Shown in pieces: positions 54,574-56,484 of a stretch of DNA of 64,000 nucleotides. The stretch lies in NCBI GenBank assembly GCA_012813795.1, contig GCA_012813795.1_4087.1; one strand, given 5' to 3'. Source of the DNA: a phage. Both the position numbers and the translations under genes were made by a program. Position 1 is the first letter of the stretch. Each line of letters starts with the position of its first letter. The notes under the pieces were generated by a model. That model searched no databases. It had not been told where the DNA came from and worked only from the letters and a program-made list of their open reading frames with translations.

Positions 54574-54738
54574 TCATCGGTGCACGATATGCATCAGTAC
54601 TTCTTCGTCTAGTTCAGTACTTAAGAATGCTTTGTACATGCACTTAACACGTATAACATCCCACATTCTAGAATCTAATGGTAGATAATAAGGATTCCAC
54701 TTTAATTTCTGGAGTTTCAGCCATTCTTCATGTGTCAT
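54574..54738 (-). CDS. MTHEEW-family mini-protein (54 aa, below track cutoff)
   Basis: ATGA overlap with upstream stop; N-terminus MTHEEW. Confidence 0.5.
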   Translation of the reverse strand: MTHEEWLKLQKLKWNPYYLPLDSRMWDVIRVKCMYKAFLSTELDEEVLMHIVHR

Positions 54739-54899
54739 ATTCGTACCATTATTTCAATAAAGAACCACTGATACGCTTCATGGTTTACAAGTTTATCGTA
54801 TTCTGCTGGGTCAGATAAGATTACCCAATGATATTTTCGCCAATTACCTATACCCGAATATCTAAAATTAATATCATTCATCCATTCTTCATGTGTCAT
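54735..54899 (-). CDS. MTHEEW-family mini-protein
   Basis: start moved to Met11 (ATGA overlap); MTHEEWMNDINFRY. Confidence 0.55.
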   Translation of the reverse strand: MTHEEWMNDINFRYSGIGNWRKYHWVILSDPAEYDKLVNHEAYQWFFIEIMVRI

Positions 54900-55063
54900 G
54901 AGCGTATCATTAACTCCATTACAAACCATGTATAATAGCCATTCAACACATACATTTGAAGCTTTTCTGGTGTACTAATATACTCCCAGTGGTATGTTCT
55001 ACATATACCATCAACACCACTATATCTTTCTTTTAGATCGTTGATCCATTCTTCATGTGTCAT
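54896..55063 (-). CDS. MTHEEW-family mini-protein (55 aa, below track cutoff)
   Basis: MTHEEWINDLKERY; stop overlaps next start. Confidence 0.5.
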   Translation of the reverse strand: MTHEEWINDLKERYSGVDGICRTYHWEYISTPEKLQMYVLNGYYTWFVMELMIRS

Positions 55064-55084
55064 GGTTTAACCTTTAATTAAAAT

Positions 55085-55166
55085 TGGCCCAGGCGACAGG
55101 ACTCGAACCTGCATACTCCAGTTACTCGATTAACGACGGTTTAGAAGACCGTTGAGATACGCCCGG
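55085..55166 (-). tRNA. tRNA-like element with Arg(TCT)-type anticodon hairpin; D-arm not resolved by manual fold
   Basis: acceptor CCGGGCG/CGCCTGG + CCA, T-arm GCAGG-TTCGAGT-CCTGT, hairpin ACGGT-CTTCTAA-ACCGT; 82 nt. Confidence 0.4.
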
Positions 55167-55170
55167 ATGT

Positions 55171-55260
55171 TGGCGGTGAAGGTGAGATTCGAACTCACGG
55201 AGGACTTTCACCCTCGCTAGTTTTCAAGACTAGTGCATTAAACCGCTCTGCCACTTCACC
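55171..55260 (-). tRNA. tRNA-Ser (anticodon TGA), class II, CCA encoded
   Basis: acceptor GGTGAAG/CTTCACC, anticodon arm CTAGT-CTTGAAA-ACTAG, long variable arm, T-loop TTCGAAT. Confidence 0.8.
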
Positions 55261-55270
55261 AGTACTAATA

Positions 55271-55299
55271 ATTATATCACATCTTTTTGAGTTGTCCAA
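55271..55299 (-). promoter_or_regulatory. sigma70-like promoter TTGGAC-N17-TATAAT upstream of tRNA-Ser
   Basis: revcomp of gtccaa 55294-55299 and attata 55271-55276. Confidence 0.5.
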
Positions 55300-55309
55300 G
55301 ATTTTTTGA

Positions 55310-55379
55310 AGCGGCATTTCGAAATCGAATCGAACAGCAGTGGAAATCGGAAGTTTCACCTCGCACCTTGCGATGCCGC
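55310..55379 (-). tRNA. tRNA-like element with Gly(TCC)-type anticodon loop and short D-arm
   Basis: acceptor GCGGCAT/ATGCCGC, T-arm TTCGA-TTCGATT-TCGAA, loop CTTCCGA; about 70 nt. Confidence 0.4.
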
Positions 55380-55397
55380 ATAGTACTATTTATCTTG

Positions 55398-55574
55398 TTA
55401 TTTTTTGTCTCTAACCGCAAGCTCAAAGATGATCCAGTGATTACTGTTTTCATCTAGTACACTACATGCGAACTTACATTTATTGCGTAAAATATCGTAA
55501 TGTCCATCAATAATACCATTACCAAATCGATCATATTTATTCTTTAATAGATTAAGCCATTCTTCATGTGTCAT
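55398..55574 (-). CDS. MTHEEW-family mini-protein (58 aa, below track cutoff)
   Basis: MTHEEWLNLLKNKYDRFGNG; ATGA overlap with upstream stop. Confidence 0.5.
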   Translation of the reverse strand: MTHEEWLNLLKNKYDRFGNGIIDGHYDILRNKCKFACSVLDENSNHWIIFELAVRDKK

Positions 55575-56074
55575 TTACGTTGCATCCAATGTGAGCCAGT
55601 CCATACTTTTTTCTTTTCACGTTCTATCTGTCGTTTTTTTAATTCTTCATCCCACAGGATATTGTCATTCAAGAAATAGTCATATAGTTCTTTTAATTTC
55701 AAATTATCAGAAAATGCGGGAAAGTACTTATTATCGCATACCAAGCTCTCTTGGAAATGTGCATCTTCATCTGTGATGTATCGATATGTAAAAATTCTAT
55801 TCGGGTTTGGATAGATACCATTTGTTTCAGAGAAACATTTTCTAAGTAGACTTTTACCAAAATCACAGATAATAGTGTCTTTACGAACAAAATTCCAGCG
55901 AGTAACCATTGTAATTGTTAGAGTTTGATAATTCTGATCTAAGCTTATTCGATGTTCACCATCTTTGTGCTTATAGTGATAAGTGCCCTGTTTTCGAACT
56001 GTTCGTTCAAACTCATTAATATTAATTTTACTTAAAATTTCAGTAATACTTTCCGGTACATGCGTAATGAGCAT
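55571..56074 (-). CDS. EExYFQ-like family protein (EDAHFQES)
   Basis: 167 aa. Confidence 0.55.
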   Translation of the reverse strand: MLITHVPESITEILSKININEFERTVRKQGTYHYKHKDGEHRISLDQNYQTLTITMVTRWNFVRKDTIICDFGKSLLRKCFSETNGIYPNPNRIFTYRYITDEDAHFQESLVCDNKYFPAFSDNLKLKELYDYFLNDNILWDEELKKRQIEREKKKVWTGSHWMQRK

Positions 56075-56119
56075 TATTGATCTCCTGTTTAAAACAAAAG
56101 AATAGCATATATATCAGTA

Positions 56120-56302
56120 CTAGTCAATTTTTTTACCTCTAACCGCAAGCTCATAGATGAACCAGCGATTACTATCCTCATCCAAGACAAATGATTTGAA
56201 CTTGTTCTTATCTTTTAAAATATCATAATGACCCTGGCGTACACCAAAGCCAAAATGATCATGTTTGAATTTTAATTCATCTAACCATTCTTGATGTGTC
56301 AT
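56120..56302 (-). CDS. MTHEEW-family mini-protein (MTHQEW)
   Basis: start moved to Met17 (ATGA overlap). Confidence 0.55.
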   Translation of the reverse strand: MTHQEWLDELKFKHDHFGFGVRQGHYDILKDKNKFKSFVLDEDSNRWFIYELAVRGKKID

Positions 56303-56484
56303 GTGTAACATCCAGTTGTTCGTGCTATAGCGTACATAGTCCCATAGCAATCATAATAGCTAATGATCGAATTGAAATAATCATCACTATCACGTAAAAT
56401 ACTTCCAAGACCACCGAATGCGAAGAAGAAAATATCATTTTCATACAGTTTATCGTTTCTTTTATGCCATTCATCTAGTGTCAT
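56299..56484 (-). CDS. MTHEEW-like mini-protein (MTLDEW)
   Basis: 61 aa. Confidence 0.5.
   Translation of the reverse strand: MTLDEWHKRNDKLYENDIFFFAFGGLGSILRDSDDYFNSIISYYDCYGTMYAIARTTGCYT

Follow-up and report, generated by a model that had tools for sequence, protein, structure and literature searches.

Six short ORFs that begin with MTHEEW or a close variant lie among the tRNA genes of a 64,000-nt stretch of phage DNA (contig GCA_012813795.1_4087.1, hereafter the window), which belongs to an Asteriusvirus-type jumbo coliphage with phage A4 as its closest record. Are these ORFs genuine genes of one family, and what could such a set of mini-proteins do for the phage?

Six related ORFs among tRNA genes

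The ORFs with MTHEEW, MTHQEW or MTLDEW starts described in the original prediction were found at exactly the positions that it gave: c1 (54574-54738, 54 aa, MTHEEWL), c2 (54735-54899, 54 aa, MTHEEWM), c3 (54896-55063, 55 aa, MTHEEWI), c4 (55398-55574, 58 aa, MTHEEWL), c5 (56120-56302, 60 aa, MTHQEWL, 64% identical to c4) and c6 (56299-56484, 61 aa, MTLDEW). All six are carried by the minus strand, on which the prediction was silent. Their lengths are 54–61 aa; the upper part of the 54–75 aa range proposed earlier requires upstream in-frame starts, which extend c2 to 64 aa and c5 to 76 aa. The proposed ATGA linkage is present at c6/c5, where the TGA stop of c6 overlaps the c5 start, and at c3/c2 and c2/c1. 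A fourth such overlap joins a 167-aa ORF to c4. An AAAGG sequence lies 9 nt upstream of c3, and a strong Shine-Dalgarno sequence is missing in some copies.

To define membership, an HMM built from the six copies was run on the 1333 six-frame ORFs of the window. It scored c1–c6 at 58–100 bits and its next match had E = 0.36; no seventh copy was detected among these ORFs, and iterative HMM searches left the window members at exactly six. PHROG already lists the family as a cluster: phrog_10970 (no assigned function) is matched by five of the six copies in the window (best E = 1.6e-28). The match runs end to end, as with residues 1–54 on profile positions 1–55 of 56 (E = 1e-24). The remaining copy, c6, falls outside phrog_10970 and represents a subfamily that has diverged within the same superfamily. 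It joins by profile–profile comparison, where hhalign aligned its subfamily with the core family over 53 columns (93% probability, E = 2.9e-7).

Similarity also extends past the first six residues, a point that the original prediction had left to proper alignment. Leave-one-out HMMs on residues 7 to the end, built from the window copies only and compared with shuffles, gave 23–55 bits for c2–c5 (shuffles reached about 10 at most), a weak signal for c1 (z about 2) and no similarity for c6. With the wider family, z rose to about 4.6 for c6 and about 2.4 for c1, these two being the weakest members. By homology, then, the six ORFs are one paralogous family.

The copies share their strand with several other features. 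A 167-aa ORF (55571-56074, minus; phrog_22160, no assigned function) has its own Shine-Dalgarno sequence, AGGAG, and its stop is the one that overlaps the c4 start. On the other side, a 71-aa ORF (56486-56701, minus; phrog_25670, no assigned function) has its stop separated from the c6 start by 1 nt (TAAAATG) and is conserved beside a family member in Asteriusvirus and uncultured relatives. A two-gene module of this ORF and a family copy was considered and rejected, the ORF being a single- or double-copy neighbour and not the partner of each copy.

The original prediction counted three tRNA or tRNA-like genes in the array, of which two stand. A tRNA-Ser(UGA) at 55171-55260 (minus) is solid. 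Next to it, at 55088-55166 (minus), lies a non-canonical tRNA-like element with the anticodon loop CUUCUAA, which scores 32.6 bits with the Rfam tRNA model (cutoff 29) and shows 100% identity across five Asteriusvirus genomes. ARAGORN made no call on this element and its predicted fold has no D-arm, so that a canonical cloverleaf is not obtained; in phAPEC6 the same slot is occupied by a canonical tRNA-Arg(UCU) whose sequence differs. The third candidate, at about 55306-55378, gave no Rfam match at E ≤ 1, no ARAGORN call and a fold z-score of −0.03. PBECO4-type phages carry a tRNA-Gly at the corresponding place.

On the minus strand, a promoter close to the sigma-70 consensus is predicted at 55271-55298 (TGGACA-16-TATAAT, preceded by an extended TG element in the usual sense of an extended −10). 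Transcription from this site would pass through tRNA-Ser, the tRNA-like element and c3-c2-c1 and meet no predicted terminator on the way. Another near-consensus site (54536-54563, minus; TTGACT-16-TATAAT) lies immediately past the c1 stop, where the coding part of the c3–c1 transcription unit ends, and a second predicted promoter ahead of a family unit lies at 57782-57754. The minus strand has 35 sites that match at least 11 of the 12 consensus positions and the plus strand has none, compared with about 5.3 expected for both strands together. Such an excess on the coding strand places the family among putative sigma-70 early genes; our literature search retrieved no Asteriusvirus transcriptome, ribosome profiling or early proteome.

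This organization recalls the tRNA cluster of T4, where small ORFs, segB and the stable RNAs C and D are interspersed and the tRNA transcripts include small ORFs of no assigned function, as is predicted for c3–c1. To our knowledge, however, the small ORFs of T4 are not paralogues of one another, and the family described here has no sequence similarity to them and was found only in Asteriusvirus-like phages.

Conserved start, predicted fold and selection

Across 89 distinct members, M1, T2 and W6 are conserved at 97–100% and E5 at 84%, these four being the most conserved positions of the family, while His3 reaches 69%. The original prediction had also proposed a Y-x-W/F core. The family that it described holds, but this core is better replaced by a set of conserved hydrophobic and aromatic scaffold positions, W6, Y14, W/Y26, L/I29, Y/F35, I/L51 and A52. 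Lengths are confined to 50–64 aa.

An AF2 model of c4, based on a 38-sequence alignment, reached a pLDDT of 85.9 with helices at residues 3–14, 23–30, 32–40 and 47–52. Helix 1 begins at residue 3, which therefore puts Thr2 at its N-cap. Capping boxes at helix N-termini have the form S/T-x-x-E, and the hydrophobic staple pairs residue N' with N4; in the family, M1 would be N', Thr2 the N-cap, Glu5 N3 and Trp6 N4. We infer that the M-T-x-x-E-W start is mainly a protein-level feature. This motif would account for the stability of the fold and not for function, and it leaves His3 unexplained. Its staple part fails if methionine aminopeptidase removes Met1, a removal that Thr2 permits.

The proteins have a median pI of 5.8, a GRAVY of −0.5 and 20% aromatic residues, versus 12% in the background. 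They are predicted to be soluble, mildly acidic, aromatic-rich four-helix proteins of about 55 residues. Three other classes were discarded on these values: a membrane protein (GRAVY of −0.5 and no hydrophobic segment), a DNA mimic (the acidity is only mild) and a nucleic-acid binder (the proteins are not basic).

pN/pS of the family is 0.19–0.45 versus 0.15–0.41 in the flanking genes, which points to purifying selection comparable to that on neighbouring genes. The most conserved copy between phages is c1, with 89–94% amino acid identity and a pN/pS of 0.19. An elevated dN/dS relative to neighbours was looked for and not seen. Close phages show no arms-race signature, because orthologue pN/pS is not above that of the neighbouring genes.

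These values bear on the simplest objection, namely that the ORFs are spurious or decaying, chance open frames in AT-rich DNA that are never translated. Several copies are indeed shorter than 60 aa, and the lack of a strong Shine-Dalgarno sequence in some of them would fit. However, six ORFs of the same strand and length share a common profile, which is conserved in about 35 genomes and also in distant relatives from metagenomes, and pN/pS is well below 1. We consider this explanation very improbable. Taken together, homology, conservation across about 35 genomes, purifying selection and a kept position support the original view of a real mini-protein gene family, joined by ATGA overlaps and interleaved with tRNA genes, as far as sequence comparison can tell.

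Arrays and copy-number turnover in related phages

The expectation that the family would be conserved in related phages was borne out. Tblastn with c4 retrieved 35 phage records, all from Escherichia or Salmonella jumbo phages, with 4–6 copies per genome; in GenBank Asteriusvirus records the genes are annotated 'hypothetical protein'. Uncultured relatives carry tandem arrays of 19, 18, 15 and 13 members (L009, L011, L012 and L013, respectively), the 19-member array being a lower bound, so that copy number ranges from 4 to at least 19. The arrays in uncultured relatives (sequence sets Logan ERR4503900 and SRR34023385, and ENA ERZ14189038) lie directly upstream of tRNA genes or are interleaved with them. 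In every lineage in which the position could be read (Asteriusvirus, L009, L011 and L013/L014), the array lies beside or within the tRNA cluster and shares its orientation; the L012 sequence stops before any tRNA gene.

Outside this group, distant members found no match in cultured phages by tblastn, and IMG/VR searches with single distant members returned nothing new. RaK2-like Klebsiella phages yielded no family member in tblastn or exhaustive profile searches. The exhaustive search also returned the long repetitive proteins P0029 and P0031, rejected as repeat artefacts on their sequences, and P0034, P0037 and others, rejected as such on length and on multiple or short matched stretches. This is a real, lineage-restricted family.

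Copy number differs between closely related phages. The c3 gene is missing from phage A4, and the boundaries of this indel lie at a 19-nt direct repeat, CATGACACATGAAGAATGG, which is the start box of the genes. In phage 121Q a truncated remnant of a family copy, MTHEEWLVQTEHLVIASMKF, was found. The module formed by the 167-aa ORF and c4 is present in A4, Turkey3 and WPEC3 and missing from PBECO4 and 121Q. Of 41 Asteriusvirus copies, 17 share an identical start box, ATGACACATGAAGAATGG, even though gene bodies are only 20–35% identical. A homing endonuclease of the HNH/NUMOD4 type is encoded about 0.9 kb downstream, within the tRNA cluster.

Could the 18–19-nt box itself be what is selected, as a recombination or translation-initiation signal, with the ORFs as near-neutral passengers hitchhiking with the homing-endonuclease/tRNA region? 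The identity of the box among diverged bodies and the indel boundary lying exactly at the box speak for it. So does codon usage: Thr2 is encoded only by ACA or ACG in the Asteriusvirus copies, and codon 2 must begin with A wherever an ATGA overlap is present. In uncultured relatives, however, all four Thr codons occur at this position (ACA 18, ACT 12, ACG 2 and ACC 2), close to background usage. Moreover, the c2–c5 bodies are clearly homologous without their first six residues, length and scaffold positions are kept over the 89 members, purifying selection equals that on the neighbours and AF2 gives a confident fold. A passenger role for the ORFs thus seems quite improbable.

Tandem growth of such loci has a precedent in T-even phages, where SegB, a homing endonuclease of the tRNA cluster, promotes the amplification of anti-defence loci in tandem; microhomology was present at the one junction characterised, tRNA-Tyr/segB (PMC13096335). 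The same paper cites the genomic accordions of poxviruses. Both the SegB system and the present family show tandem repeats in a tRNA/homing-endonuclease region; where SegB junctions carry microhomology, the family indel is bounded by the 19-nt repeat and relatives reach 13–19 copies. The SegB amplifications are recent, made of identical repeats and laboratory-selected, and their cargo has proven anti-defence activity. The family copies, in contrast, are old and diverged and their defence role is putative. The phrog_10970 entry holds no function, no tandem multi-copy description and no link to tRNA clusters.

Possible roles of the family

The reading that we tentatively prefer is that of early, translationally coupled mini-proteins which were expanded by unequal recombination into an accordion of host-directed effectors. 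All six ORFs would be translated, from an early region read by the host RNA polymerase with sigma-70 and from transcripts shared with the phage tRNAs, and the ATGA stop/start overlaps would couple their translation. The start motif would anchor helix 1 on the scaffold through the Thr N-cap and Glu N3 capping box and the Met N'/Trp N4 staple, so that most positions outside the start and the scaffold could vary freely. Unequal recombination between near-identical start boxes, in a recombination-prone tRNA/homing-endonuclease region, would have grown the array and may still change its copy number. Each paralogue would then bind and modulate a different host or host-defence protein early in infection, the array forming a diverged 'gene accordion' whose products serve host takeover or counter-defence. 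The family is probably host-directed and possibly counter-defence, the anti-defence assignment being drawn from context.

Searches for known relatives gave no direct clue. Nothing in Pfam passed the threshold (best YxiJ, E = 0.12), none of 38 family members matched PADLOC models at E ≤ 0.1, and the best PDB hit by sequence profile had E = 0.24. Foldseek against PDB, using a first and poor model, returned no match, and in BFVD the family itself was the only match. A full-text literature search for 'MTHEEW' found no paper, and no description of the Asteriusvirus paralogues was found in the literature. The phAPEC6 orthologues gp094c-096c and gp099c-101c are absent from the 62-protein structural proteome (PMC7247149), in which small proteins are easily missed by mass spectrometry and whose table has no 'gp09' or 'gp10' entry at all.

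The paralogues could instead act inside the phage programme, as small adaptors or regulators of the transcription switch, replication or nucleotide metabolism. Small all-helical early phage proteins such as T4 AsiA and T7 Gp2 do regulate RNA polymerase, and an ordinary pN/pS that is not raised, like the strong conservation of c1, would suit such a role. Against this, known regulators have no fold similarity to the family, and the absence of c3 in A4, the truncated copy in 121Q and the 13–19 copies in relatives represent a turnover unusual for core regulators. This role is rather unlikely.

A tRNA-centred role has also to be weighed. The mini-proteins might inhibit tRNA-cleaving defence nucleases (anticodon nucleases, Septu, PARIS or retron-type effectors), or bind and escort phage tRNAs, forming an anti-tRNase island with the tRNA genes. 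The position of the array beside or within the tRNA cluster and the single predicted promoter common to c3–c1, tRNA-Ser and the tRNA-like element are consistent with it, and phage tRNAs are known to counter tRNA-targeting defences (PMC13096335, PMC10264068 and PMC11555353). Nevertheless, the adjacency may be just synteny inherited in one clade, and RaK2-like Klebsiella phages have the same tRNA cluster and neighbouring small-RNA element, yet no family member was found in them. In addition, mild acidity is untypical of RNA binders and no known nuclease inhibitor resembles the family. We regard this as unlikely. The same low probability is given to a version in which a diversified accordion of inhibitors is tied to the tRNA island both physically and by transcription: the paralogues would each block their own defence nuclease of the host, tRNA-targeting or other, in a single modular counter-defence locus with rescue tRNAs, the tRNA-like element and the conserved small RNA, its copy number being tuned by homing-endonuclease-stimulated recombination at the start box.

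Jumbo phages consist mostly of genes without known function, and this family is among the clearest organised features of the early region in a group of E. coli and Salmonella phages proposed for therapy. It qualifies as a candidate host-takeover or counter-defence set that is cheap to test on four counts: the fold is compact and has no relative that could be detected, the termini are strictly conserved around a body that varies, copy number spans 4 to at least 19, and the position beside the tRNA cluster is fixed. If there is no host target, the locus would still be instructive as an example of phage gene turnover driven by microhomology. If the tandem-amplification view of the array, as an expanded set of host-directed effectors, is true, it would offer a natural example of the long-term divergence of amplifications at a tRNA/homing-endonuclease locus.

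The six mini-protein genes and their relatedness

By its database matches, the window belongs to an Asteriusvirus-type jumbo coliphage: region 54000-57200 is 97% identical over 78% of its length to Escherichia phage A4, classified as Asteriusvirus. The search that found A4 also matched it, at lower identity, to about 55 further records, for the most part of jumbo phages of Escherichia, Salmonella and Klebsiella. The six ORFs of the original prediction were all present, each on the minus strand: c1 (54574-54738, 54 aa), c2 (54735-54899, 54 aa), c3 (54896-55063, 55 aa), c4 (55398-55574, 58 aa), c5 (56120-56302, 60 aa) and c6 (56299-56484, 61 aa). 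The ATGA stop/start overlaps which it described were found, reading the minus strand, at c6/c5, c3/c2 and c2/c1. A fourth links a 167-aa ORF (55571-56074) to c4, and a single base separates the end of the upstream 71-aa ORF from the c6 start.

An HMM of these copies scored its own members at 58-100 bits; a seventh copy, sought with it among 1333 six-frame ORFs of the window, was not found (next match E = 0.36). These genes are the window's largest paralogue family. A second one, of three members of ~120-155 aa (46790-47254, 47791-48258 and 50334-50696, minus strand; blastp E < 1e-4), is located in the same early region.

The c1-c6 alignment spans the full length, end to end. Similarity past the initial hexapeptide was assayed with leave-one-out HMMs on residues 7 to the end, against shuffles. 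From the window copies it held for c2-c5 (23-55 bits; shuffle maximum ~10), while c1 reached 4.7 bits only and c6 about 0. With the wider family, close orthologues left out, z was ~4.6 for c6 and ~2.4 for c1. Moreover, a c6-type alignment, which took in several proteins from within family arrays of uncultured phages, matched the core family by hhalign over 53 columns (93% probability, E = 2.9e-7). Taken together, these comparisons place the six ORFs in one superfamily, of which c6 is a divergent branch. In GenBank these genes already carry the annotation hypothetical protein, and an existing PHROG without known function, phrog_10970, covers five of the six. A Pfam search gave nothing for the family, and we found no paper mentioning the MTHEEW motif or the family.

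Of 41 Asteriusvirus copies, 17 share an identical start sequence at the DNA level, ATGACACATGAAGAATGG. In uncultured relatives, all four Thr2 codons are used at roughly background proportions and the His and Glu codons of the start likewise vary, which places the constraint on the MTHEEW start mainly at the protein level. The ATGA overlap imposes that codon 2 begin with A. M-T-x-x-E-W, with a predicted helix 1 from residue 3, would fit a textbook capping box (Thr at N-cap, Glu at N3) plus hydrophobic staple (Met at N', Trp at N4).

Distribution, large arrays and turnover

Conservation in related phages was borne out: tblastn with c4 detected the family in 35 phage records, each an Escherichia or Salmonella jumbo phage. 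A word-indexed search of 5.8 billion proteins gave 21 clusters (49-71 aa), and an exhaustive HMM search of 1.84 billion representatives 30 matches, ~25 of them proteins of 43-64 aa; the remaining long-protein matches were taken as repeat artefacts. All Asteriusvirus loci examined carry 4-7 copies, variable in number and type and every time in the tRNA region.

Much larger arrays occur in uncultured relatives. A 78-kb Logan contig (L009, from ERR4503900) carries ~28 consecutive genes of 45-68 aa at 6547-11024, 19 of which pass the iterated family HMM, immediately followed by tRNA-Leu, Gly, Ser, Arg, Met, Thr and Tyr. Several intervening genes (e.g. 7750-8635) are sub-threshold, yet of comparable length and C-terminal pattern, and may be even more divergent members. 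Three other loci, L011, L012 and L013, hold 18, 15 and 13 members, respectively. The array lies directly upstream of tRNA genes or is interleaved with them in L011 and L013; L012, a short contig, ends without reaching a tRNA gene. In L009, L011 and L012 the array is preceded by a DUF1353 gene. Given these 13-19-member arrays, the window's six copies are a small representative of a tandem multigene family that reaches far greater size.

This conserved adjacency makes a role specific to tRNAs attractive, for example the blocking of tRNA-cleaving defences. RaK2-like phages, however, have the same tRNA cluster without a detectable family member, and we consider such a role unlikely.

Copy c3 has no counterpart in A4, the difference being a 165-bp indel flanked on both sides by CATGACACATGAAGAATGG. 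In phage 121Q, gene 115 (L003:5636-5698), annotated as a 20-aa ORF MTHEEWLVQTEHLVIASMKF, starts with the box (the near-identical 18-19 nt that open family genes) and is a truncated member. This remnant is evidence for deletion or rearrangement beginning just past the start box. The module formed by the 167-aa ORF and c4 is also present in some phages and missing from others. A free-standing HNH/NUMOD4 homing endonuclease gene (53124-53681, minus strand) lies within the tRNA cluster, 0.9 kb downstream of the array. It adjoins tRNA-Ser (52972-53063) and is found at that place in Turkey3 and WPEC3 but not in A4. This tRNA-Ser (minus strand) has anticodon ACT (A34) according to ARAGORN; A4 and PBECO4 have GCT and Turkey3 has both. 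Differences in the anticodon loops of phage tRNAs have been associated with evasion of tRNA-targeting defences (PMC10264068).

A 2026 study of T-even phages showed that anti-defence loci undergo tandem amplification driven by SegB, the homing endonuclease of the tRNA cluster, with microhomology at the junction of the characterised tRNA-Tyr/segB repeat; its authors compare the process to poxvirus genomic accordions (PMC13096335). By analogy, the present locus looks like a long-diverged outcome of this kind of amplification.

tRNA-like elements and expression context

The array had been proposed to flank three tRNA or tRNA-like genes. Two of these stand, tRNA-Ser(UGA) and, directly after it, a non-canonical 79-nt tRNA-like element (55088-55166, minus strand). 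In the latter, the acceptor stem is 8 bp long, the D-arm is missing, the anticodon loop reads CUUCUAA (UCU), the variable hairpin is small and the T-arm is normal. The element scores 32.6 bits with Rfam and is not called by ARAGORN. It is invariant in five phages (100% identical in A4, 121Q, Turkey3 and ELP-22), and the 121Q record labels it tRNA-Leu(taa); in phAPEC6 this slot is taken by a tRNA-Arg(UCU) that is canonical and differs in sequence. The third (55306-55378, minus strand), between c4 and the tRNA-Ser promoter, was not recognised as a tRNA and folds no better than shuffles. It is closed by a terminal stem of 7 bp, GCGGCAT/ATGCCGC, contains a T-loop-like GTTCGATTC, is identical in A4, and corresponds in position to tRNA-Gly(UCC) in PBECO4- and 121Q-type phages; it may be a tRNA remnant.

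The tRNA cluster also contains a candidate structured small RNA gene (54094-54237, minus strand) within a 185-nt gap (54079-54263), with a -10-like TATAAT at 54249-54244, a 3′ stem followed by a T7 run, and a fold of -44.1 kcal/mol (MFE, z = -2.9). Its identity is 97-99% in most Escherichia/Salmonella jumbo-phage records carrying it, exceeding the conservation of flanking genes, and 82-84% in 9 records of RaK2-like Klebsiella phages, where it sits within the tRNA cluster. Six E. coli phages of ~76 kb share its first half at 82-83% identity; in the one examined, the Kuravirus podophage XT18, it lies in an unannotated gap. RNAalifold on 6 sequences gave 39 pairs, 8 with compensatory changes, and Rfam holds no family for it. 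A4 has a tRNA-Gly at this position, and some records annotate a hypothetical protein across it.

Sigma-70 promoter matches (at least 11 of 12 positions) numbered 35 on the minus strand and 0 on the plus strand, against ~5.3 expected by shuffling for both strands together. They span 14681-63965, many being perfect TTGACA-17-TATAAT. From this strand bias, the window beyond ~14.7 kb looks like an early region read by the host polymerase, and most of the window forms one large early block with a single direction. Downstream of the promoter at 55298-55271 (minus strand) come tRNA-Ser(UGA), the tRNA-like element and c3-c2-c1, no terminator being predicted between, and the next promoter (54563-54536) begins directly after c1. 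We infer tRNA-mRNA co-transcripts and translational coupling of the copies. A terminator-like perfect 10-bp hairpin with T7 (56723-56746, minus strand) separates the DUF1353 gene from the 71-aa ORF preceding c6-c5. Since no strong promoter was found between this hairpin and c6, c6-c5 expression may depend on read-through.

Selection, predicted fold and possible function

Uncorrected orthologue pN/pS was 0.19-0.45 for the family, in the range of flanking early genes (0.15-0.41), indicating that purifying selection acts on it, with no relaxation and no unusual speed of change. Two remaining rivals are that these ORFs are spurious, or near-neutral passengers of the start box. Over 89 distinct members, M1 (100%), T2 (97%), E5 (84%) and W6 (97%) are conserved together with a hydrophobic/aromatic scaffold (Y/H14, W/Y26, L/I29, Y/F35, I/L51, A52), the bulk of the other positions being highly variable. 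AlphaFold2 gave a poor model with the initial 27-sequence alignment (pLDDT 65) and pLDDT 85.9 with 38 sequences including distant relatives, predicting four helices (3-14, 23-30, 32-40, 47-52). The proteins are mildly acidic (median pI 5.8), predicted soluble (GRAVY -0.5) and aromatic-rich (20% versus 12% background). Foldseek against PDB, queried with the pLDDT 65 model, found no structural relative, BFVD nothing beyond the family itself, and PADLOC and a PDB sequence-profile search nothing. The phAPEC6 orthologues are not in the phAPEC6 virion proteome (62 proteins).

A phage-internal regulatory role is another remaining rival. The early expression signals, the small size, solubility and non-basic character of the proteins, their variable surfaces on a conserved scaffold, the tandem expansion with copy-number turnover and the accessory, recombination-prone location together agree best with early effectors directed at the host, perhaps in counter-defence, a reading that we hold tentatively. 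The family is an uncharacterised addition to the small early accessory genes that occur in tandem expansions in large phages; the arrays of 13-19 copies and a timely tie to amplification at tRNA/homing-endonuclease loci add to its interest.
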